This document shows positions 6,005 to 38,444 of a stretch of DNA of 64,000 nucleotides, one piece after another. This stretch comes from a virus, in the IMG/VR virus record IMGVR_UViG_3300047476_000639, positions 1 through 64,000 of that record. One strand, written 5' to 3'. The notes beneath the pieces are model-generated. The model made no database searches, had not been told where the DNA came from, and saw only the letters and a list, made by a program, of their open reading frames with translations. Every line of letters starts with the position of its first letter. Positions within the stretch are counted from its first letter, which is position 1. A program made the position numbers and the translations under genes.

Positions 6005-6484
6005 GTGACAGAAGAGCTTGATACCAAGATAGAAATTGAATTACTTAAAAAAGATGTTGTAACCATGTCGGCGCTTCTGACGAAGTTTGATGCCGCGCTC
6101 GACAAGATGCAAGAGATCGCATCAAGTCTTTCAAGAATGGTATCTTTGCAAGAGCAGAGACTTGAAGTCCAAGAAACCTCAACCAAAGAATTGCAAAGCG
6201 TACTGGAAATGCGTAGAATAGAACATAACTCAGAAATCAAAGAATTGCACTCACGAATAACAACCGTAAACCGCGAACTCTCAGATAAAATTGATGATAC
6301 TGAAAAGAAGATACTTGATGAAATTCAATCTCTCAAGATAGAGTTGAAGGGCGACAACAAAGGCATAGGTACTAGACTTTCACAGATCGAAGCATGGAAG
6401 TATGGCGTTGCCGCTGTAATCGCCGCTCTGTTATTCCTTGCAACAAAAAATGCAATCAACATCAGCAAACTGTTTGGTATTTAA
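6005..6484 (+). CDS. coiled-coil protein with C-terminal transmembrane anchor
   Basis: Heptad-like E/K/L-rich sequence; C-terminal AAVIAALLFLA; the track's first codon is GTG, so the start is uncertain. Confidence 0.4.
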   Translation: MTEELDTKIEIELLKKDVVTMSALLTKFDAALDKMQEIASSLSRMVSLQEQRLEVQETSTKELQSVLEMRRIEHNSEIKELHSRITTVNRELSDKIDDTEKKILDEIQSLKIELKGDNKGIGTRLSQIEAWKYGVAAVIAALLFLATKNAINISKLFGI

Positions 6485-8527: not shown

Positions 8528-10453
8528 ATGTCAGGCAGTAACATGTTACCGACCCTCTATCAGGAGTTCATTCATAAGTCACGCTATGCCCGATGGCTAT
8601 GGGAAGAAAATCGTAGAGAGAATTGGGACGAAACCGTTGCACGTTATTTCAATTTCTTTGATGAGCATATCAAAGAAGTTACAGGTTATAATGTAACTAA
8701 AGAAGAGCGTAAGCAGCTAGAAGAAGCTGTACTCAATCTTGAAATCATGCCATCTATGCGTTGCTTGATGACTGCTGGTGAAGCACTCAAGCGTGAGAAT
8801 GTTGCTGGCTATAACTGTTCGTATGTTGCTGTTGATAGCCCTCGTTCGTTTGATGAAATTCTTTATATCTTGATGAATGGTACTGGTGTAGGTTTCTCAG
8901 TAGAATCCAAGTATGTGGATCAACTGCCTGTGGTCCCCGATGCTTTCTTCGATACTGAAACTACAATTTCCGTTGCTGACTCCAAGTTGGGTTGGGCAAA
9001 GGCTCTCAAAGAACTTATTCATCTTCTTTATGCTGGCCAAGTACCTGCTTGGGATTTGAGCAAAGTTCGTCCTGCTGGTGCACCTCTTAAGACATTTGGT
9101 GGTCGAGCATCTGGTCCCGGTCCATTAGAAGAACTCTTCAAGTTTACTGTTGCAACATTTAAGAAGGCCGCAGGTCGTAGACTGAACACATTGGAGGCAC
9201 ATGACATTGTTTGTAAAATTGCTGAGATTGTCGTTGTCGGCGGTGTTAGACGCTCTGCGCTTATTTCTCTTTCTGACCTTAGTGATGATAGAATGCGCGT
9301 TGCAAAGTCTGGTGACTGGTGGAAAGAGAATGTACAACGCGCTCTTGCTAACAACTCTTTCGTTGCAAAAGAGAAGCCTGATGTGGGCCTCTTCATGCGT
9401 GAGTGGCTTTCCCTCTATGAGTCGCGCTCTGGCGAACGCGGCATTTTTAGTCGAACTGCGTCTAAGAAGCAGGCTGAGAAGTTCGGACGCCGTGATCCTG
9501 AACACGATTTCGGCACCAACCCATGTTCTGAAATCATTCTCCGTTCACGCGAGTTCTGTAATCTTACAGAGGTTGTCGTCAGAGGAGATGATACGCCCGA
9601 ATCACTCAAGCGCAAGGTCAAACTCGCAACTATACTTGGTACATTCCAATCCACACTTACCAACTTCAAATACTTGAGCAAGAAGTGGGCTGAGAACTGT
9701 GCTGAAGAGCGGCTGCTTGGTGTGTCATTGACTGGCATCATGGACAATCAGTTTACGAATGGTGGTGTTGCAGGTGTTGAACATCTTGGACCAATGTTGG
9801 AGGGACTACGTGAAGAAGCTGTCAAAACTAACAAGACTTGGGCTGCAAAGCTTGGTATACCTGTCTCTGCTGCTATTACTTGCGTCAAGCCTTCTGGCAC
9901 TGTATCTCAGTTGGTTGACTCCGCATCTGGTATTCACGCCCGTCATAGTCCTTACTACATTCGTACTGTTCGTGCAGATAAGAAAGATCCTCTCGCAGTT
10001 ATGATGAAGGACATGGGTTTCCCATGTGAAGATGATGTGATGAAACCTGACCACACCTATGTGTTTTCGTTCCCGCAGAAGTCACCTGATCATGCCGTGT
10101 TCCGTACTGACATGACTGCTATTCAACAGCTTGAACTGTGGCTTGTTTATCAGCGCCATTGGTGTGAGCATAAACCTTCTGTTACTATCTCTGTAAAAGA
10201 AGAAGAGTGGCCAGAAGTTGGCGCATGGGTCTATAATCACTTTGATGAAATGTCAGGTGTTTCTTTCTTACCATTCTCTGATCATGTCTATAAGCAAGCG
10301 CCTTATCAAGACTGCACGAAAGAAGAATATGAAGCTCTTCTTCAGAAGATGCCAAAGAATGTCATTTGGACCGATTTGGCTAAGTACGAAAAGAGAGACA
10401 GTACAACCGGCTCACAAGAACTTGCTTGCGTGGCCGGAGGCTGTGAAATTTAA
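8528..10453 (+). CDS. ribonucleotide reductase, class II-like (probably adenosylcobalamin-dependent)
   Basis: Catalytic motif TNPCSEIIL; N-terminal YQEFIHKSRYARW; C-terminal Cys pair CVAGGCEI; single large subunit with no visible NrdB partner. Confidence 0.7.
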   Translation: MSGSNMLPTLYQEFIHKSRYARWLWEENRRENWDETVARYFNFFDEHIKEVTGYNVTKEERKQLEEAVLNLEIMPSMRCLMTAGEALKRENVAGYNCSYVAVDSPRSFDEILYILMNGTGVGFSVESKYVDQLPVVPDAFFDTETTISVADSKLGWAKALKELIHLLYAGQVPAWDLSKVRPAGAPLKTFGGRASGPGPLEELFKFTVATFKKAAGRRLNTLEAHDIVCKIAEIVVVGGVRRSALISLSDLSDDRMRVAKSGDWWKENVQRALANNSFVAKEKPDVGLFMREWLSLYESRSGERGIFSRTASKKQAEKFGRRDPEHDFGTNPCSEIILRSREFCNLTEVVVRGDDTPESLKRKVKLATILGTFQSTLTNFKYLSKKWAENCAEERLLGVSLTGIMDNQFTNGGVAGVEHLGPMLEGLREEAVKTNKTWAAKLGIPVSAAITCVKPSGTVSQLVDSASGIHARHSPYYIRTVRADKKDPLAVMMKDMGFPCEDDVMKPDHTYVFSFPQKSPDHAVFRTDMTAIQQLELWLVYQRHWCEHKPSVTISVKEEEWPEVGAWVYNHFDEMSGVSFLPFSDHVYKQAPYQDCTKEEYEALLQKMPKNVIWTDLAKYEKRDSTTGSQELACVAGGCEI

Positions 10454-13577: not shown

Positions 13578-13796
13578 ATGATCACGAAAGAAAACTTCGG
13601 CGGTATTGCTGTTGCCGATTTGCTTGTGATGACAGGCCTTGCAAAAAGCAAATCTGAAGCAAGACGCGGTATACAACAAGGCGCCGTTCGTATGAATGAT
13701 AGAAAGATTACTGATCCAACTATGCGTGTCGGTTGGTTGAAGAAAGATGATGGCACGTTTGAAGTTTGGTCATTGGAGGAAAGTAATGAAGTATGA
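13578..13796 (+). CDS. stand-alone S4-fold RNA-binding protein resembling the TyrRS C-terminal tRNA-binding domain
   Basis: LAKSKSEARRGIQQGAVRMNDRKITDP matches the TyrRS C-terminal / S4 consensus (SxxEARRlIqqGgVrvNgekvtDp). Confidence 0.55.
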   Translation: MITKENFGGIAVADLLVMTGLAKSKSEARRGIQQGAVRMNDRKITDPTMRVGWLKKDDGTFEVWSLEESNEV

Positions 13797-14976
13797 ATTT
13801 CCTAACATATTACACATAGATGATGTGTTACCGCACATTAAGGACTCTCCTGAGTTCATCCATGCTGTGAAGGATGGCTATACCGTAATCAACTACGTTG
13901 TGGCTGGTCACGATACTTTTCCTGATGTTGAACAGTCGCCTGAACTTGAATTTGATATTCTTGCCCAGCGCAATGCTCTTCGTCGTGAGTGTCGCGGTCT
14001 TGTGTTTGACTCTGAAACTGGTGAACTGATCAATCGTCGGTATCACAAGTTCTTCAATGTGAACGAGCGTGATGAGACTTTGCTGGACAAGATTGACTGG
14101 TCTAAGCCTCACATTATTCTTGAGAAGCTTGACGGCTCAATGGTATCTCCTTGCCGAGTGCGTAACCACATTCGTTGGATGACCAAGATGGGCGTTACTG
14201 ACACTTCCATGGAAGCAGAAGCATTTGTGGCTAAGAACCCAAAGTATGCTCTTGTTGCTCGGATGGCATATGATCGTGATCTGACTTTGATCTTTGAATG
14301 GTGTTCTAACAAGAACCGTATCGTACTGGACTATCCTGATGATCGTCTTGTGCTTACTGCTGTTCGGTTCAACGATAATGGTAAGTACATGCCATATGAT
14401 GAACTGAAGCAACTCGCGGCTGGGTTTGATATCCCTCTTGTTCAGGCGTGGGACTCTCGTATCACACATGATGTTCTTACCAAGATTGTTCGTCAATCTG
14501 AGAACATTGAAGGTGTGGTTGTTCGGTTTGATGACGGCCACATGGTCAAGATCAAGTCGGACTGGTATGTCCGTATTCACAAGGTCAAGTCTATGCTTGG
14601 TCAGGAACGTGATGTTGTAGAACTGATACTGAAGAACGAATTGGATGATATGCTTCCTGTCCTTCCAAAAGAAGACGTTGAGCGAGTGGAAAAGTTCCGT
14701 GTGAAGATGGAAGAGAGACTTCGCGCCGATGCTTACGTTCTGGATCAGACTATTCGTTACACCCGTTCTGGAATGGATCGGAAGTCTTTTGCATTAGAAG
14801 CAGCACCTAACATCTCTCCTGTGATTCGTGGTATGATCTTCCAGTTTTGGGACAAGGAATGTAACGAACACTTGACTTATCAGGCCATTGTTGCTACAAT
14901 ACTCAAGAACTGTGGCAATAACGGTTCCTACGCAAAGGTCAAGGAAGCGTTTCTAAAGGATGTTAACTATGTCTAG
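13786..14976 (+). CDS. rnlA: RNA ligase 1 (T4 RnlA-like)
   Basis: Nucleotidyltransferase motif [12 protein letters not shown] (T4 ILTKEDGSLVS); [23 protein letters not shown] versus T4 [23 protein letters not shown]. Confidence 0.85.
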   Translation: [396 protein letters not shown]

Positions 14977-16907: not shown

Positions 16908-17155
16908 TGAACAACAGACATAAGTGGAAGAATGAGCAGTTTCGAGCATTGCTTTGGAAAGCCAGCATCGGTTACAATGATAGTTGGTCACAGGTTGATC
17001 CTGAAGTCCTTGAAAAGTTTGCTGAGTTGATTGTCGTAGATTGTTTGATTGAGATTGAACGTCTTGGCATTCGTAATGGTGATACGGAACATAACAGAGC
17101 ATTAGGTGCTGCATGGAAAGCAATCTCTGAAAAATTTGGTGTAACAGAAACATGA
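16907..17155 (+). CDS. hypothetical small protein
   Basis: TAATGA overlap. Confidence 0.35.
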   Translation: MNNRHKWKNEQFRALLWKASIGYNDSWSQVDPEVLEKFAELIVVDCLIEIERLGIRNGDTEHNRALGAAWKAISEKFGVTET

Positions 17156-17829
17156 AGTTCGGAATCTTTTCAGACCTGCACATGGAGTTTCAACCGTGGT
17201 TCTTTGAGCCTGATCCTGATGTGTTCTATTTGAATGCTGGTGATACTCATCCGCAGAAATTGACGCGCGATTACTTCTATTCGCTATTCAAAGATAAACT
17301 TTTTTCAGTGCCAGGTAATCACGACTACTACGGTAACTCGTTTGCCAATGCCGATATGGACTTTCCAGATCCAGTTTTCTTAGCAAAACCTGATGGCAGC
17401 ACCATCACTATCGCCGGCGCCACTCTTTGGACTGACATCTCTCCCGTTCGTTGGTGGGATTTCAAAGAGTATATGATGGACTATCGCAACATCAAAGGTA
17501 TGAACTATGATCGTTACATGAATGCACACAAGACGCATCATGACTATCTGTTCAATGCAGGTGCCGATATTTGGGTTATACATCATCTACCATCTTATCA
17601 GTCGGTGCATGAAGAGTATCGTCACTCTAACGGTAATGATTTCTTTGCTACTGAACTTGCGCCGAAGATCCTTGAAATGAAGAAGCCGCCAAAGCTGATC
17701 GTTCACGGACACACACATAAGCAGTGTGACTATATGATTGGCGAGACTAGGGTGATTTGTCATCCGCGCGGGTATCCGGGTGAGAATGATTGGTATCAGA
17801 ACTATCAGCCGTTGATTGTAGAGGTGTAA
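17152..17829 (+). CDS. calcineurin-like metallophosphoesterase
   Basis: Metal-ligand motifs GDTHP, GNHDYYG, HGHTH. Confidence 0.65.
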   Translation: MKFGIFSDLHMEFQPWFFEPDPDVFYLNAGDTHPQKLTRDYFYSLFKDKLFSVPGNHDYYGNSFANADMDFPDPVFLAKPDGSTITIAGATLWTDISPVRWWDFKEYMMDYRNIKGMNYDRYMNAHKTHHDYLFNAGADIWVIHHLPSYQSVHEEYRHSNGNDFFATELAPKILEMKKPPKLIVHGHTHKQCDYMIGETRVICHPRGYPGENDWYQNYQPLIVEV

Positions 17830-18486: not shown

Positions 18487-19923
18487 ATGAACTCTTTTGT
18501 AAATGCTATCGCTAACCAAGAAGCTCGTACTGAAAACGGTATGAAGGCTCTTGCATCTACCACAAGCAAGAACGTTGATCTGTTCTTCAAGATCGGTGCT
18601 TCGCGTGGTAAAGATATTACTGCCGACTTTACCAGCGCATATGTTGAAGATCGTGACACTGCGCTTCGTATTGCACAGTGGGCCCGCGATATCCGTGGTG
18701 GTGCTGGTGAACGTAAGCTATTTCATGACATTATCAACAATCTCATCAACTCTGATGAAGCTGCTGCAATAGCACTGCTTCGCAAGGCTCCTGATCTTGG
18801 TCGTTGGGATGATGTTTTGGTGGCCATCGGCGCGCAGGGTGCAGTTGGTGATGCCGCTGTATCGATGATCAAGTCTTCACTCGACAAGGGTGATGGTCTG
18901 TGTGCGAAGTGGATGCCACGTAAGGGCGCTCTTGCAGCAACTCTTCGTGAGAAGCTTGGATGGACTCCGAAGTATTATCGTAAGCGTCTTGTAGAACTGA
19001 CAAAGGTTGTTGAAACACAGATGTGTGCTAATGATTGGGACAACATCAATTTCAACCACGTTCCTTCTGTTGCTTCTGCTCGTTACAAGAAGGCGTTCAA
19101 GCGTCACACTGCAAAGTATGCTGAGTGGACTACAAAGCTCGTTTCTACTGATCCTTCTGTTCGTGCAGAAGTAAAGGTAAATGCTGGTGCTGTGTATCCT
19201 TATGATGTAATCAAGGGTTTGTCTGCTTATGGCATCAACTATGATAAGTCTAACCTTGATCATATCGTTGCACAGTGGGAAGCTTTGCCTAACTTCGTTG
19301 GTGATGCATCTATTCTACCAATCGTAGACGTTTCTGGTTCAATGGCCTGCAAGGCCGGCGGGTATCAGTCTAAGAGCATGACTACTTGCTTGGATGTCTC
19401 TGTGTCGCTTGGTCTTTACCTTGCAGATAAGAACAAGGGTGTATTTAAGGATACATTCTTGACCTTCTCTACTAAGCCACAGCTTGTTACTCTCAAGGGC
19501 AACATCGTTCAGAAGATCGAACAGATGATCCGCGTTGACTGGGAGATGGACACCAATCTACATGCTGCAATCAAGAAGATCCTTGATGTGGCTATTAAGG
19601 GTAAAGTTCCTCAGTCTGATATGCCAAAGATGCTGCTGATCCTCTCAGACATGCAGTTCAATGGTTGCGTTGAGTATGATGACAGCGCGATTGAAATGAT
19701 CCGCCGTAAGTATACTGATGCCGGCTATGAAATGCCGAAGGTCGTGTTCTGGAACCTGAACGCACATGAAAATGTGCCTGTTAAGGAGAACGAGAACGGA
19801 GTTGCTCTGGTATCTGGCTTCTCGCCATCTATCGTGAAGAGCGTTCTCGCTGCCGATCTATCCGGTTTCACTCCAGAAGCCATCATGCGTAAGACCATCA
19901 TGGTCGAGCGTTACGACTACTAA
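18487..19923 (+). CDS. vWA-like (possibly DUF2828-type) domain protein
   Basis: MIDAS-like VDVSGSM; about 480 aa; long 5' leader upstream. Confidence 0.45.
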   Translation: MNSFVNAIANQEARTENGMKALASTTSKNVDLFFKIGASRGKDITADFTSAYVEDRDTALRIAQWARDIRGGAGERKLFHDIINNLINSDEAAAIALLRKAPDLGRWDDVLVAIGAQGAVGDAAVSMIKSSLDKGDGLCAKWMPRKGALAATLREKLGWTPKYYRKRLVELTKVVETQMCANDWDNINFNHVPSVASARYKKAFKRHTAKYAEWTTKLVSTDPSVRAEVKVNAGAVYPYDVIKGLSAYGINYDKSNLDHIVAQWEALPNFVGDASILPIVDVSGSMACKAGGYQSKSMTTCLDVSVSLGLYLADKNKGVFKDTFLTFSTKPQLVTLKGNIVQKIEQMIRVDWEMDTNLHAAIKKILDVAIKGKVPQSDMPKMLLILSDMQFNGCVEYDDSAIEMIRRKYTDAGYEMPKVVFWNLNAHENVPVKENENGVALVSGFSPSIVKSVLAADLSGFTPEAIMRKTIMVERYDY

Positions 19924-20308: not shown

Positions 20309-21235
20309 GTGTCATATTATGAAGAGCAGCGCCGCAAGGCATTTGAACAGGAACAACAGGAGAAGAAAGCAATGATTAAGCGGGTCGCAACGTTTGCGGG
20401 ACTTGGTGTGGTGTCTTTCGTGGCACTTGGTATTTTCTTTGGATCGTGGTATACGGTCGATGAAGGTGAACGTGCAGTCATTCTGACAAACGGATCTTTT
20501 ACCGAAATTGCTCAGCCGGGTCTGAACTTCAAGATGCCTTTTATACAGGCCGCAAGGTTCTTCACGATCCGTAATCAGGTTGCTGAGTTTGATCAAATGG
20601 CAGCATATTCATTTGATCAGCAGATTGCTGAAATGAAAGTGTCTGTCAACTATCAGATTGCTCCAGAACTTGTAGAGCGTATCTATAAGGAATATGGATC
20701 GATGGAAGGTGCAGTAACTCGCGTCATCAATCCAAAGGCTCTAGAGACTGTAAAGACCATTTTTGGTCAGTATAGCGCACAGCGAGCCATTCAGGAACGC
20801 GGTAAGCTCAATACTGATATTACTCTTGCACTTCAGAATGCGGTAAAGTCTTCTGGTATTCAGATTACTTCTGTTCAGGTCGAGAACATCGATTTCTCTG
20901 ATGCATATGAAGGTGCTGTTGAAGCCGCTGCAAAGGCAAAGGCAGACATTGAGCGTTCTAAGTCAGAACTACTTCGTGTCGAACAGGAAGCACAGCAGAA
21001 GGTAAAGCAGGCACAGGCTGAAGCAGAAGCTAAGAAGCTTCAGGCAGATGCTGATGCCTATGCCACTTCCGCAGCAGGTAAGGCAACCGCTGAAGCAATC
21101 CGCGAACGTGGTGCTGCACTGAGAGATAATCCTCAGCTTGTTGATCTTGTTGCCGCAGAACGTTGGAATGGTCAGCTTCCTACCAGCATGGTACCAGGAT
21201 CGTCTGTACCCTTTATCAATGTTCAGCCTAAGTAA
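20309..21235 (+). CDS. SPFH / band-7 (prohibitin, HflK/C-like) domain membrane protein
   Basis: N-terminal TM followed by SPFH-like YTVDEGERAVIL...; coiled-coil AQAEAEAKK; start could instead be the internal MIKR. Confidence 0.65.
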   Translation: MSYYEEQRRKAFEQEQQEKKAMIKRVATFAGLGVVSFVALGIFFGSWYTVDEGERAVILTNGSFTEIAQPGLNFKMPFIQAARFFTIRNQVAEFDQMAAYSFDQQIAEMKVSVNYQIAPELVERIYKEYGSMEGAVTRVINPKALETVKTIFGQYSAQRAIQERGKLNTDITLALQNAVKSSGIQITSVQVENIDFSDAYEGAVEAAAKAKADIERSKSELLRVEQEAQQKVKQAQAEAEAKKLQADADAYATSAAGKATAEAIRERGAALRDNPQLVDLVAAERWNGQLPTSMVPGSSVPFINVQPK

Positions 21236-33729: not shown

Positions 33730-33944
33730 TGTATCTTGATCCATGGATGATAGTTGTACTCATTCTAGCTTTCGGTATTTGCTCCTTGATCAGTAGAAGA
33801 CAAGGTGTTTATTTCGGAGTTGTTAACACTCTTCGAGGATTACACGAACAGAAAATTATCAAGATCGATACGAATGGTATAGTAAGTCCTTACAAGACAC
33901 TCGAAACGGTAAAAAAGAGAAAAAGAAAAGATGCTAAGTTTTAA
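33729..33944 (+). CDS. small membrane protein
   Basis: Hydrophobic helix IVVLILAFGICSLI. Confidence 0.4.
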   Translation: MYLDPWMIVVLILAFGICSLISRRQGVYFGVVNTLRGLHEQKIIKIDTNGIVSPYKTLETVKKRKRKDAKF

Positions 33945-34782
33945 GACATACTTGACTGAAGAGAAGAAGAAGAAAAAGAAGCAGCGTGAAGAATCCAAGC
34001 ACTATAATAAAGTCTTCATGGGTAAATCAGACATTGAAGCTGATGAGACTAAGAAGAACTATAACAAAGTCTTCATGGGCAAAAAGAAGATTGATGAAGA
34101 TATTCTTCCTGAACCTCACATTGGCCGTCCTTCAGGTGCGATTGAAACTCTACACAAGAAACTGTCAAGACATTACAAGTTTGGTAAAAAGCTTAAGCTG
34201 AGAGAAGAGCCTAAGCTTGATGATCCGCACGGCGATGAAAAGGTTGGCATTAGACGTTACACCGGTATTGCGTATAAACACATAAACAAAGCACTATATA
34301 AAGGTGATACCAGTCTTCTTTTACCAGAACATCAAGATGCAATGCAGCAAGTGATGGGCGCACAGAGACGCCATAAGACTCCTGTAGCCATGACTGTTCA
34401 CACAGGTATCAAGCGTGATCCAAGACAGATGGAAAAACACGAAGGTCAAATCAAAATGGAGATGCCGGCATTCACCAGCACTTCATTAGATGTGGATCAA
34501 GCTAAAGAGTTTGCACGACCATCAAACGAAGGAACTGGCAATCCCAACACATATGAAAATCATGTCGTACACATTGATGTACCAAAAGGTTCTCATGGTG
34601 TGTATGTTGCTCACCATAGTCAAATGCCAGATGAAAAAGAATTCATTCTTCATCCGGGCGCACGGGTGCATTTACATCCTGAACCAACTCATGTTGAAGA
34701 AAAAGATGATGGGTGGGGTGATACAACGAGAACATATCACTGGCGAGGTAAACTTGTACACGATGGTGTTAAAGACGTTTGA
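33931..34782 (+). CDS. ADP-ribosyltransferase (R-S-E class, Alt/Mod or exoenzyme-like) with CTS-like N-terminus
   Basis: YTGIAYKHINKALY (R-region), FTSTSLD (STS motif), EKEFILHPGA (ExE motif); N-terminus MLSFKTYLTEE; tandem NYNKVFMGK repeats. Confidence 0.65.
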   Translation: MLSFKTYLTEEKKKKKKQREESKHYNKVFMGKSDIEADETKKNYNKVFMGKKKIDEDILPEPHIGRPSGAIETLHKKLSRHYKFGKKLKLREEPKLDDPHGDEKVGIRRYTGIAYKHINKALYKGDTSLLLPEHQDAMQQVMGAQRRHKTPVAMTVHTGIKRDPRQMEKHEGQIKMEMPAFTSTSLDVDQAKEFARPSNEGTGNPNTYENHVVHIDVPKGSHGVYVAHHSQMPDEKEFILHPGARVHLHPEPTHVEEKDDGWGDTTRTYHWRGKLVHDGVKDV

Positions 34783-34836: not shown

Positions 34837-35466
34837 ATGAAAAGATATGTGATTGGTGATGTGCATGGTTGCTATGATGAACTGTGCGAACTGTTTGAGA
34901 AGATTGAGAAGCACCACGGCGGTTATGACTACAAGCTGATTTTTGTTGGTGACTATGTTGATCGTGGACCAAAATCAAAAGATGTTGTAGACTTCATTAT
35001 GAAGATGCAGAAGCGCGGCCATGTAGCTCTCATGGGCAATCATGAAGATATGCTTATCGCTGGTGAATACATGTATGCTGCTGAAACAATTGTCAGCTTT
35101 GGTGGTTTTCGCGGCCATTATATACCCGATTGGGCAATGAATTGGATGAAGGCACTGCCAAAGTATTATGAAGATGATACAATCATTGTGGCTCATGCTG
35201 GTGCTAATCCTGCATTTCCAATGAATGAACAAACAGATACTATGCTCTTGTGGTTACGATATCAGCCGCACCATAATGCACACATGGGTAAGCATTTCTA
35301 TCACGGACATACTCCACACATAGGTAAGATTGAGCAAGCAGAGGATCGCACAAATGTAGATACTGGTTGTGTGTATGGCGGACATTTGACGGCCGCTATT
35401 GTAGGAGATGATGGCAAACCTGAAGGTTTCATTCAGGTGCCACACAAGAACAGTGCGTATGCATAA
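34837..35466 (+). CDS. Ser/Thr protein phosphatase, PPP family (lambda PPase-like)
   Basis: GDVHGC, GDYVDRG, GNHE motifs. Confidence 0.75.
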   Translation: MKRYVIGDVHGCYDELCELFEKIEKHHGGYDYKLIFVGDYVDRGPKSKDVVDFIMKMQKRGHVALMGNHEDMLIAGEYMYAAETIVSFGGFRGHYIPDWAMNWMKALPKYYEDDTIIVAHAGANPAFPMNEQTDTMLLWLRYQPHHNAHMGKHFYHGHTPHIGKIEQAEDRTNVDTGCVYGGHLTAAIVGDDGKPEGFIQVPHKNSAYA

Positions 35467-35482
35467 AGCATATATACTGTAG

Positions 35483-35800
35483 TTATCGTTGAAGGAAAAC
35501 GAAAAACACTGAGGACTGGGGGGCGGTACCCCACGCCTCCACCACGAACACACTGAGAGTCTGACCAGCAGATCATGGTGAACTATGCAATGGGAATGTT
35601 CACTTGCTTGGTGTGTTCTTGATGGGGGCGAACTAGGATCGACTGAGTGTAGAATAGTTGACTGGAGATAACCGTAGGCGACTACGTACAAGCGCAAAAC
35701 TCTAAATGCAAACGATAACGTTCCTGCATATAAGGCTTACGCTCTAGCAGCGTGATACCTGTGGGTATGGCTCCACCTAGAAACAGAACGGGCCACTTTA
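35483..35800 (+). ncRNA. ssrA: permuted two-piece tmRNA (ssrA): acceptor piece ending ...CGCCUCCACCA, then intervening hairpin, then coding piece starting GGGGGCGAACUAGGAUCGAC with tag ORF (A)NDNVPAYKAYALAA-stop
   Basis: The 5' end matches the universal tmRNA start GGGGnnGAuucuGGAUUCGAC. Upstream, T-arm TGGGG-GGCGGTA-CCCCA is followed by CGCCTCC-ACCA, complementary to GGGGGCG with a G3-U70 wobble. cucuaaauGCAAACGAU... parallels the E. coli resume region; the tag ends ALAA. Confidence 0.6.
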
Positions 35801-35824
35801 ACACACATGACACAGGAGTATATC

Positions 35825-36082
35825 ATGTCAAAGACACCTTATGAACTACGTTATGAACTTCTTATGCTTGCTCAAAACATCCTCACAGAACAAATTATGA
35901 ATGAACGCATTCGTCTTGAGAATGATTGGAGTCTCGCAAGAGAGAAGGCCTCCATTCAGCTTTCTAATGGTGACACAAAGATTGATCTTCCACCTTTCCC
36001 CGAGGTACCTAAGATCAGTGAAGAGGCTATTATCAAGATGGCAGAAAAGCTTAATACATTTGTGTCTAAGAATGCCGAATAA
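35825..36082 (+). CDS. hypothetical protein
   Basis: ATG with caggag RBS. Confidence 0.4.
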   Translation: MSKTPYELRYELLMLAQNILTEQIMNERIRLENDWSLAREKASIQLSNGDTKIDLPPFPEVPKISEEAIIKMAEKLNTFVSKNAE

Positions 36083-36314: not shown

Positions 36315-36869
36315 ATGACAAACACGTTAACCGATAACGACACTTTTGCGGTATCGACGCTGAAAGACAAACTCAAGTCTAATCTGAAAGAAGTTCTTGG
36401 TGACATAAAGTTTTCTTCATACTTCAACCCAGAACAGCTTGTTATTGCAGGTGGTTGCTTCACATCTCTGTTTCATAGCGATACTGTTAAAGACTATGAT
36501 TTCTTCATTCTGAACAGCACACATGAACAAGACAAGCTTTTTGAGAAGACCATATTGAAGCATGGAGATATGTCTTATATCAAGAACAAGAACATCAAGG
36601 CAACTCACACGAACACATCAAATGCTGTGCAGTGGATTCTTACCTCTTATAAGAACAGGAAAGAACTCATCGATAGCTTTGATATGCTTCACTGCACGAT
36701 CTCTTATGTGCCGCATGAAGATGCCTTGTATGTGAGTCCTCTTACTCTTCATTGCATCAAGAATAAGATCATGCGGCCAAACCTGAAAAGGAAGCCTGAA
36801 GAGATTGAATATTGGCGTATTGAAAAGTTTAGGGTAAGGGGCTGGAAGAATGAGATTGTCGGCGTATGA
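36315..36869 (+). CDS. hypothetical protein
   Basis: ORF; overlaps the next gene by 20 nt. Confidence 0.4.
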   Translation: MTNTLTDNDTFAVSTLKDKLKSNLKEVLGDIKFSSYFNPEQLVIAGGCFTSLFHSDTVKDYDFFILNSTHEQDKLFEKTILKHGDMSYIKNKNIKATHTNTSNAVQWILTSYKNRKELIDSFDMLHCTISYVPHEDALYVSPLTLHCIKNKIMRPNLKRKPEEIEYWRIEKFRVRGWKNEIVGV

Positions 36870-37461
36870 TACATTCTGTCTTTATCTGGCACTGAAAAAT
36901 CACTTTTCAAGAGACAGTTACGATTTCTTCAAGTACAATGGTAAGACGCATGTGAATAAAGAAACATTCCTCAATCGCAGAGACCGACTACAGTTTCAGC
37001 GGCTCTCAAAGAGGTATGATGCTGATCAGATGCGGGATTTCTTTATTGCAAACTTTCTACACGACGAAAGCATTTGGGTTGGTAATCTTCTTGATGACAA
37101 TTCTGATGAACGCTATAATGAGTATATGAAGAGGAAGCAGTCCCTTTCATATGTGTTCAAGAACGAGCTTGATAAAATTTTAGATGATGTAAATGGTGAT
37201 ATCAAAGCTCTGTTCAAACCACATGATGGAACTCTTCCTCTTCTAACTGCTCACTACCAACATGAGGCATCGCTAGAAACACTGGCGATACTCGACTACT
37301 TCGTAGACTACTTCAACAGATATGATGATCGATACAAAGATGATTATATGTGGAGTAAGACACGAAAGAGGTGCAAGAAGCTTTTCCCTTTCATTGAGTT
37401 TGATAAAAATAAAATGAAAGAATTGCTTAAAGAGAAGTTGAATGCGCCTATATACTCTTGA
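36850..37461 (+). CDS. helicase loader, T4 gp59-like
   Basis: FCLYLALKNHF...YDFFKYN and RRDRLQFQRLSKRY...IWVGNL parallel T4 gp59 YKLYLMIKQHM...YDVIKYN and RRDKYFFQKLSEKY...AWIGDI. Confidence 0.7.
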   Translation: MRLSAYDTFCLYLALKNHFSRDSYDFFKYNGKTHVNKETFLNRRDRLQFQRLSKRYDADQMRDFFIANFLHDESIWVGNLLDDNSDERYNEYMKRKQSLSYVFKNELDKILDDVNGDIKALFKPHDGTLPLLTAHYQHEASLETLAILDYFVDYFNRYDDRYKDDYMWSKTRKRCKKLFPFIEFDKNKMKELLKEKLNAPIYS

Positions 37462-37520
37462 CGGAACGAGATTGTTCTGTCAACATACAACGATATACAA
37501 CGAACATACGGAGAAAATAC

Positions 37521-38444
37521 ATGACTAACTTTGCATCCCTTAAGAAGACTTCTTCTGACATTTCCCGCCTCACTAAAGAAATCGAAAAGATCAATAACCC
37601 AGAGTCCAGCACTGAGTATGAAGAAGACACGCGCTTCTGGAAGCTCACTCGCGGTAAGGACGGAAACGGTTCTGCTGTCATTCGCTTTCTTCCCGGTCCT
37701 GCGGTTGATGGTGATGATGCTCTTCCTTGGGTACGTTACTTTGACCACTGGTTCAAGGGTCCCACTGGTAAGTGGTACGTAGAGAATTCTCTGACGACCT
37801 TCGGTAAGAAGGATCCCGTCTCTGAGTTCAACAGCACCCTTTGGGGTGATTCCTCAATCAAGGACGAATCCTTCCGTCCTCTTGAGCGCAAGCAGGCGCG
37901 TGAACAGAAGCGCAGGCTTCATTATGTTTCTAACATCTATGTTGTCTCTGATCCTGCCAATCGTGAAAACGAAGGCAAGGTGTTCCTGTTCAAGTATGGT
38001 AAGAAGATTTTTGATAAGATCACTCTTGCTATGAAGCCTGAGTATGAAGGTGATCAGGCCATTGTTCCCTTCGATTTGTGGAAGGGTGCAAACTTCAAGC
38101 TTCGCTGCCGCACCGTAGCTGGTTATCCTAACTATGATCAGTCTGTCTTCGATGGTGTCTCTGCACTCCATGATGACGATGCTGTGCTTGAGAAGATTTG
38201 GAAGTCTGAGTTCTCTTTGAAGGAGTTCATCGATCCTAAGAACTACAAGTCTTACGATGAACTGAAGAAGCGCCTGAACGAGGTGCTTGCTTTGAATGAT
38301 CAGATTACGGACTCTGTGACTTCTTCAAGGCCCGTTGATCCGGTTACTTCGTCAAAGCCGACCTTCGACGGACCAAAGACAAAGAAGTATGATGATCCTG
38401 CGCTTGATGATGATGAAGATTACTTCAAGAACCTGATTGACTAA
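37521..38444 (+). CDS. single-stranded DNA-binding protein, T4 gp32-like
   Basis: GNGSAVIRFLPGP versus T4 GNGQAVIRFLPSK; ENEGKVFLFKYGKKIFDKI versus ENEGKVFKYRFGKKIWDKI; acidic C-terminal tail. Confidence 0.85.
   Translation: MTNFASLKKTSSDISRLTKEIEKINNPESSTEYEEDTRFWKLTRGKDGNGSAVIRFLPGPAVDGDDALPWVRYFDHWFKGPTGKWYVENSLTTFGKKDPVSEFNSTLWGDSSIKDESFRPLERKQAREQKRRLHYVSNIYVVSDPANRENEGKVFLFKYGKKIFDKITLAMKPEYEGDQAIVPFDLWKGANFKLRCRTVAGYPNYDQSVFDGVSALHDDDAVLEKIWKSEFSLKEFIDPKNYKSYDELKKRLNEVLALNDQITDSVTSSRPVDPVTSSKPTFDGPKTKKYDDPALDDDEDYFKNLID

Follow-up and report, generated by a model that had tools for sequence, protein, structure and literature searches.

We analyzed a window of 64,000 nucleotides (nt), positions 1 to 64,000 of the IMG/VR virus record IMGVR_UViG_3300047476_000639 (~41% G+C), in which an initial annotation made from the letters alone had placed a phage-encoded, permuted transfer-messenger RNA (tmRNA; gene ssrA). 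The gap in question lies between a gene for a PPP-family metallophosphatase and the genes that lead to gp33. A two-piece (permuted) tmRNA gene of the alphaproteobacterial (alpha) type, complete and conserved, occupies it, in a T4-like phage. On this central claim dedicated gene finders, comparative analysis and T4-like synteny agree. All positions given without a contig name are positions in the window.

A complete permuted tmRNA gene upstream of gp33

ARAGORN called a single RNA gene in the whole 64 kb, a permuted tmRNA at 35452-35846 on the plus strand, with a tag that reads ANDNVPAYKAYALAA followed by a stop. Rfam (release 15, gathering thresholds, whole window) gave two matches only, both over the full length of the model and with E values of ~1e-22: RF04321 (tmRNA_permuted) with 118.8 bits against a threshold of 47, at 35482-35755 and model positions 1-213 of 213, and RF01849 (alpha_tmRNA) with 88.5 bits against a threshold of 50, at 35437-35797 and model positions 1-355 of 355. 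The finder and the alpha covariance model that the initial annotation had named as checks thus both returned the gene, at a level that chance could not account for. A permissive scan (E ≤ 1) over 35300-36000 added nothing beyond the tmRNA models, and no riboswitch. The order of the parts is permuted, the encoded ACCA end (35541-35544) and a spacer preceding the GGGGGCG 5′ end (35624-35630) and the tag frame (Table 1). The gene begins with the outer P2 helix, whose first base is 35482, and extends to about 35797.

All the main elements listed by the initial annotation lie on the plus strand where it had placed them, inside the gap, except that the intervening segment measures 79 nt rather than 76. 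The 340 nt given for the gap run to an ATG at 35807, which some relatives lack; the next open reading frame (ORF) likely starts at 35825, behind AGGAG.

Table 1. Parts of the tmRNA gene and adjacent genes in the window
Feature	Positions	Strand	Basis or content
Acceptor piece, ~63 nt	35482..35544	+	RF04321 match start, ARAGORN permuted call, covariation; holds 3′-side P2 strands, T-arm, 3′ acceptor strand, discriminator A, encoded CCA
Outer P2 helix, GUUAUC	35482..35487	+	pairs with GAUAAC 35667-35672
Inner P2 helix, CACUGAG	35507..35513	+	pairs with CUGAGUG 35643-35649; G-G mismatch 35511/35645
T-arm, 5-bp stem UGGGG/CCCCA, 7-nt loop GGCGGUA	35517..35533	+	covariation
3′ acceptor strand and ACCA	35534..35544	+	CGCCUCC 35534-35540, ACCA 35541-35544
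Intervening segment, 79 nt, presumably excised from the precursor	35545..35623	+	closing stem covaries
Coding piece, ~174 nt, 3′ end approximate	35624..35797	+	RF01849 match end, conservation to ~35797; holds GGGGGCG, P2 strands, PK1, tag frame, P5, PK2
PK1 region	35673..35695	+	P3 CGUAG 35673-77 / CUACG 35682-86; P4 GCG 35678-80 / CGC 35693-95
Tag frame, resume codon GCA, 15 codons, UGA 35753-55	35708..35755	+	ARAGORN, translation; encodes ANDNVPAYKAYALAA
P5 mini-hairpin GCU-CUAGC-AGC in the last tag codons	35741..35751	+	93% paired
PK2	35761..35795	+	S1 GUG 35761-63 / CAC 35774-76; S2 UGGCUC 35768-73 / GGGCCA 35790-95
A/T-rich −10-like element TATATACT	35471..35478	+	conservation upstream of first P2 base
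ADP-ribosyltransferase-like protein	33931-34782		upstream of phosphatase
PPP-family metallophosphatase, 209 aa	34837..35466	+	PF00149 62 bits, phrog_246; upstream neighbor
85-aa ORF	35825..36082	+	AGGAG 7 nt before ATG; homologues in 48 viral contigs; downstream neighbor
gp33-like late-transcription coactivator, 75 aa	36072..36299	+	PF16805 Trans_coact 70.2 bits, phrog_254
gp59	36850-37461		T4-type neighbor
gp32	37458-38444		~52% identical to cyanomyophage gp32; T4-type neighbor

Covariation in the two pieces and the spacer

We aligned ten syntenic phage copies, the window included, which form a small related set. The specified structure, with its pseudoknots, was paired in 93.2% of cells, compared with 35-50% when the partners were slid by 1-3 columns. 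Twenty-two pairs had changed on both sides, and none of 500 shuffles reached the observed values. RNAalifold, run without a prior structure, recovered the acceptor stem, the T-arm, both ends of P2 and the spacer stem, with compensatory change in 20 of its 47 pairs.

The acceptor stem forms as proposed: all seven pairs between GGGGGCG and CGCCUCC are present and 100% paired, two of them with compensatory changes. The G3-U70 wobble is U-G in 10/10 copies, and ACCA is invariant. The T-arm is likewise 100% paired, its two outer pairs being doubly changed in 5/10 sequences. Its loop, GGCGGUA, had been regarded as non-canonical; this is incorrect, as the loop equals the alpha-type consensus of RF01849 (GGCgGUA). 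The long-range P2 pairing, which had defied resolution by eye, can now be located at both ends by compensatory changes. The outer helix has six pairs, 100% paired in the ten sequences, two of them doubly changed (G-C to A-U in three sequences), and the inner helix has six counted pairs, 84.7% paired, two doubly changed, and was also predicted independently by RNAalifold. The central part forms no regular helix: the strands between the two helices (35488-35506 and 35650-35666) are nearly invariant, purine-rich and not complementary. They may represent an internal loop or a protein-binding site specific to this phage clade. A local hairpin in the acceptor piece, UCGUU/AACGA at 35486-35502, is 88% paired with one covarying pair and overlaps the outer P2 helix.

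The stem that closes the spacer was found where it had been predicted, with strands GAACACAC (35546-53) and GUGUGUUC (35611-18), and extends from the predicted 8 bp to 9 bp (35546-35554 / 35610-35618). Its nine pairs are 100% paired, and 7/9 are doubly changed. The interior of the spacer is variable and cannot be aligned between relatives, and the UGAU that precedes G1 is invariant. A conserved, covarying stem around an unalignable interior is the pattern to be expected of a processing signal and not of a product, and the stem probably guides processing. The acceptor stem and spacer together fold with −42.9 kcal/mol (z = −4.5). A 15-codon ORF inside the spacer was discarded, as it falls in the unalignable interior.

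In the coding piece, the PK1 region is compatible with two folds. As a pseudoknot, it has P3 92.9% and P4 96.7% paired; as a single bulged hairpin (GCG-A-CU/AG-CGC), it is 98% paired with three double changes, all from one relative (L151). The sequences fit both equally well. The GNRA hairpin CGUAG-GCGA-CUACG noticed initially is real, either as P3 of PK1 or as part of the bulged hairpin. Downstream of the tag, a hairpin next to the stop codon (AUACC-UGUG-GGUAU) had been proposed, but its AUACC/GGUAU stem is only 35-67% paired in relatives and was rejected; the conserved element at this place is the pseudoknot PK2. The loop of PK2, GAAACAGAA, is invariant among relatives, and its S2 helix covaries: UGGCUC/GGGCCA, GAGGGGA/UCCCCUC, GGAGGGG/CCCCUCC, GCAACCA/UGGUUGC and GGCAGCUUU/AAAGCUGCC. 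These variants were read from the unaligned sequences, since MAFFT misaligns this part, which lowers the pair counts in the covariation tally.

The tag ending in ALAA and a stop was recovered both by ARAGORN and by translation. The tags of relatives, ANDNFAPRLALAA, ANDNFAPRMALAA, ANDNVPASKAFALAA, ANDNNVASKAYALAA, AANDNAPYKMALAA and AANDNAPFEMRLAA, keep the first four and the last four residues (ANDN start, ALAA end) and vary in the middle. The frame is intact and ALAA-ended in every relative whose tag ARAGORN reads, and the resume region is invariant. Different synonymous codons spell the final Ala-Leu-Ala-Ala from copy to copy, and all three stop codons (UGA, UAA and UAG) are used. Within the P5 mini-hairpin, the third pair is U-A, C-G or A-U depending on the sequence with the Ala codons retained, so that one synonymous third position of the tag covaries with its P5 partner. 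Conserved tag ends, synonymous changes and covariation in P5 together indicate selection on both the peptide and the RNA, which argues against a relic or a tag-less decoy.

Genomic position and related loci

The tmRNA gene starts 16 nt after the upstream stop codon, between phage genes on the same strand. The best Protein Data Bank match of the upstream phosphatase is 4j6o, a "Metallophosphoesterase" (E = 3.5e-16), which we take to be the phosphatase domain of the bacterial RNA-repair protein Pnkp; ApaH diadenosine tetraphosphate (Ap4A) hydrolases and the lambda phosphatase follow. The adjacency of phosphatase and tmRNA recurs in five related loci (L121-L125). Downstream, the next gene is not gp33, as had been stated, but the 85-aa ORF (orf85), which matches no Pfam or PHROG family; the gp33 homologue comes after it. 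The order tmRNA, orf85, gp33, gp59, gp32 fits the ssrA module of aquatic T4-like phages, and other T4-type genes in the context encode a tail lysozyme protein, PhoH, RNase H, a primase and an Rnl1-type RNA ligase. No terminator-like site was found between the tmRNA and orf85, making their co-transcription likely. The −10-like element TATATACT lies 4 nt ahead of the first P2 base in most relatives, and a TATATAC-like or TATAAATA-like sequence stands there in most of the ten aligned copies (not in L120 and L124). The element was not called by a sigma-70 scan, and the 9-mer is not enriched in the window. It may be a promoter, in which case it would fix where the acceptor piece begins.

The tRNA-repair neighborhood reported for the locus is overstated: 20 kb separate the RNA ligase from it, and the phosphatase next to it can be classed only generically, as PPP/ApaH-like. 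ARAGORN found no tRNA genes in the window. The Rnl1-type RNA ligase (PF09511, 110 bits, 13747-14976), a second metallophosphatase (17152-17829) and a DUF2828/DUF7788 protein (18487-19923), 16-22 kb upstream, may provide further RNA-handling functions. The window also encodes an SPFH/Band 7 protein (20309-21235) and a class II (B12-type) ribonucleotide reductase-like protein (8528-10453).

Searching IMG/VR with the 85-aa ORF yielded 48 loci. All 11 close relatives of the ORF (≥54% identity) with DNA available upstream carry a permuted tmRNA directly upstream (11/11). ARAGORN detects eight of these, and Rfam adds three full-length genes (L126 2612-2974, L127 2612-2974 and L129 876-1250; 114-126 bits, RF04321), indicating that phage surveys based on ARAGORN only undercount. 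At least 119 IMG/VR contigs contain the alpha-type acceptor motif, and ARAGORN calls a full tmRNA in 59 of those listed; homologues of gp33, gp59 or gp32 lie near the tmRNA in at least 20 further contigs. The nearest tmRNAs are viral, from 87% identity (L122) down to ~63%, and the best bacterial one reaches 62% among the matches listed, a biased sample. The 5′ 20-mer matches at least 120 contigs, mostly alphaproteobacterial, with similarity in the tRNA-like segments only, again in a biased sample. An exact 28-mer from the resume region had no match in 185,579 species genomes. Among GenBank phages, DNA searches found only conserved tmRNA segments of ~100 nt in two Rhodobacter phages and Sinorhizobium phage Phosso; the 12-kb neighborhood had no close relative, and tblastn found no match to the 85-aa ORF at E ≤ 1e-3 or to gp33 at E ≤ 1e-5.

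The slot is not always filled in the same way. Contig L164 (IMGVR_UViG_3300035698_008589), which is T4-like, has a beta-type permuted tmRNA (2441-2856; RF01850, 95 bits; 28-residue tag VNTNAMIEGFAQMAAQAVTPSDKVALAA) upstream of an orf85 homologue, gp59 and gp32, so that the slot holds different tmRNA lineages in different phages. Distant relatives of orf85 (L132-L163, 30-41% identity) have arrays of one to nine tRNA genes there and no tmRNA, for example at L132 1367-3623 and L157 172-3701. Just downstream of orf85 homologues, we observed a wcaG RNA (73 bits, L136 3674-3782) and a freshwater-2 RNA (58.5 bits, L133 3818-3894); the latter hints that part of this phage group comes from fresh water.

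Proposed role and known systems

By homology with the two-piece tmRNA of Caulobacter crescentus, reportedly described by Keiler, Shapiro and Williams in 2000, we propose the following mechanism. The region would probably be transcribed with orf85 and gp33 as one precursor, in the order 3′ half of the tRNA-like domain (35482-35544), 79-nt spacer, and 5′ half with the mRNA-like part (35624-~35797). Host RNase P would cut 5′ of G35624, trimming would halt at the encoded CCA (35544), and the spacer would be discarded, leaving two RNAs of ~63 and ~174 nt that stay paired with each other in the acceptor stem and P2. Host alanyl-tRNA synthetase (AlaRS) would recognize G3-U70 and the discriminator A and charge the acceptor piece. 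With host SmpB and EF-Tu, the charged complex would be taken up by ribosomes that had stalled on broken or stop-less mRNAs; restarting at the GCA at 35708, these would add the degradation tag ANDNVPAYKAYALAA with its LAA end and be released at the UGA at 35753. The likely benefit to the phage would be additional ribosome-rescue capacity while host and phage mRNAs are cleaved during takeover. Ribosome rescue during infection through host SmpB, AlaRS and RNase P is thus the most likely role, and rescue during host shutoff, as the initial annotation had it, is a reasonable proposal. We consider it highly probable that this circularly permuted ssrA of a T4-like myophage is functional and serves host-dependent ribosome rescue during infection.

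Several results weigh against this interpretation. The 7-bp central P2 helix of RF01849 is absent in the window copy, as the mismatch marks in the alignment show. The slid-partner control, 35-50% against 93.2%, is somewhat favorable, the tested structure having been drawn from the window sequence and the window being in the set. A single-sequence minimum free energy fold of the whole gene failed to give the T-arm, which is why we relied on comparative analysis. Scans of the window gave no confident promoter or terminator; the transcript ends are guesses. Finally, tblastn with an E. coli SmpB query gave no significant match in the 64 kb, from which we infer the dependence on host SmpB.

A missing middle P2 helix and the SmpB result would also suit a copy of a host ssrA that is decaying or is carried along as a neutral passenger, functionless in the phage. 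This is very unlikely, however: compensatory changes uphold every core helix, no copy varies in G3-U70, ACCA or the resume region, the tag is open and ALAA-ended in each relative whose tag ARAGORN reads, and the slot persists in phages that share only 30-70% identity in the flanking proteins. An origin outside the phage, from a chimeric assembly with bacterial DNA or as a host tmRNA fragment of attP type left by integration and excision, deserves mention since tmRNA genes are common integration sites and fragments of them occur in prophages (PMC4383910); some of the ≥119 IMG/VR contigs with the acceptor motif may be of this kind. Yet the window gene is complete on both sides and not a 3′ fragment, and sits between same-strand phage genes, 16 nt from the upstream stop, with T4-type genes for replication and late transcription around it. 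These junctions are found again in no fewer than 11 independent contigs and in an isolated phage, and the nearest tmRNAs are viral (63-87% identity), compared with a bacterial best of 62% among the matches listed. Such an origin is exceedingly unlikely.

A different question is whether a working tmRNA might be used mainly to redirect proteolysis or regulation, by tagging host proteins so that their amino acids are recycled, or by serving in timing or sensing. Redirected proteolysis was raised as an alternative for phage Melnitz by Buchholz et al. (PMC9004378). The middle of the window tag, VPAYKAY, differs from sampled bacterial tags such as ANDNYAEVALAA, and phage tag middles diverge fast. 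Since a ribosome must have an empty A site for tmRNA to act on it, selective tagging of host proteins would need an additional mRNA-cleaving activity; none was identified here. The sequence offers nothing to separate redirected proteolysis from ordinary rescue, and we hold a main use of this kind to be quite unlikely. A wider reading joins two ideas: that the place upstream of gp33 is, in aquatic T4-like phages, an exchangeable cassette for translation RNAs, holding an alpha tmRNA in the window, a beta one in L164 and tRNA arrays in more distant relatives, and that tmRNA, phosphatase and Rnl1-type ligase form a counter-defense kit against ribonuclease-based abortive infection by the host. If the kit were real, it would mend broken tRNAs and clear ribosomes stalled on cleaved mRNAs. 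We rate this combined reading as unlikely. Host-dependent ribosome rescue remains the reading we prefer.

The window gene shares with the bacterial alpha two-piece tmRNA (C. crescentus, RF01849) the order of acceptor piece, spacer and coding piece, the T-loop GGCGGUA, G3-U70, the encoded CCA, the 5′ end GGGGGCGAAnUAGGAUCGAC, a tag with an ANDN start and LAA end, and a conserved 3′ pseudoknot with ...AACAGAA.... In contrast to it, the window copy is phage-encoded and has a longer spacer (79 nt), and a conserved purine-rich internal loop stands in the phage copies where the bacterial model has its central 7-bp P2 helix. Similarity to the bacterial genes sampled is confined to the tRNA-like segments, with a best overall identity of 62%.

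Phage tmRNAs have long been catalogued (PMC4131195), and a 2025 database holds 79 unique phage sequences (PMC11915505). As in the window, where SmpB was not found, mycobacteriophages of the Bxz1 group and Bacillus phage G are lytic or large phages with their own ssrA and without smpB (PMC4131195), but theirs has the standard unpermuted gene form. The RNA of phage DS6A consists of a tRNA-like domain only and is thought to inhibit host tmRNA (Hudson et al. 2014; PMC4131195); unlike this mimic, the window copy has a complete tag frame, a PK1 region and PK2.

Closer to the window stands HTVC008M (NC_020484), a cultured Pelagibacter phage. It carries a permuted alpha tmRNA (RF01849, 83.8 bits; RF04321, 90.6 bits) at 6104-6462 of locus L290, which corresponds to NC_020484 ~145103-145461, in the same slot, running from PhoH through tmRNA, small ORFs, gp33 and gp59 to gp32. 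It differs in its short tag, ANFNEYALAA, and in having two small ORFs, not one, before gp33. The RefSeq record leaves this tmRNA unannotated, and a hypothetical coding sequence, I899_gp195, overlaps the 3′ end of the ARAGORN call. Together with the three relatives missed by ARAGORN, its absence from RefSeq indicates that phage tmRNA genes are under-annotated.

The novelty implied by the initial annotation does not hold, as the same arrangement is known in Melnitz and pelagimyophages (PMC9004378) and is present in HTVC008M; the locus by itself raises no new question. It adds a well-supported example of aquatic T4-like phages keeping their own ribosome-rescue RNA at a fixed genomic position, and the gain is a covariation-backed structure for this phage clade, including the conserved spacer stem. 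Whether the slot contains an alpha tmRNA, a beta one or none might help to trace the host lineage or past host switches, as argued for Melnitz.

In the T4-like OM43 phage Melnitz, Buchholz et al. (2022) described a two-piece, alpha-lineage ssrA directly upstream of gp33; related pelagimyophages also carry such an ssrA, and permuted tmRNAs occurred in 17/47 related contigs (PMC9004378). Fifty-three of the 133 unique tmRNA structures in that study, drawn from 402 tmRNA-encoding phage genomes, were two-piece, mostly from marine or aquatic phages (PMC9004378). A glutamine (glnA-type) riboswitch in the ssrA 3′ domain was reported for Melnitz and Mosig and is usually absent (PMC9004378), so that it does not define the group. 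The window copy lacks it, neither the gathering-threshold search of the whole window nor the scan of 35300-36000 at E ≤ 1 finding one. The window also differs from Melnitz in the 85-aa ORF between tmRNA and gp33, and the sequence is too diverged for detection by blastn. The likenesses are an aquatic T4-like myophage, an alpha-lineage permuted tmRNA and the same operon position upstream of gp33, all shared with Melnitz and the pelagimyophages. For Melnitz, in addition, no SmpB was reported and the same role was proposed, upkeep of the hijacked translation machinery (PMC9004378). The window gene is a further example of this known arrangement in aquatic T4-like phages, at the same position.

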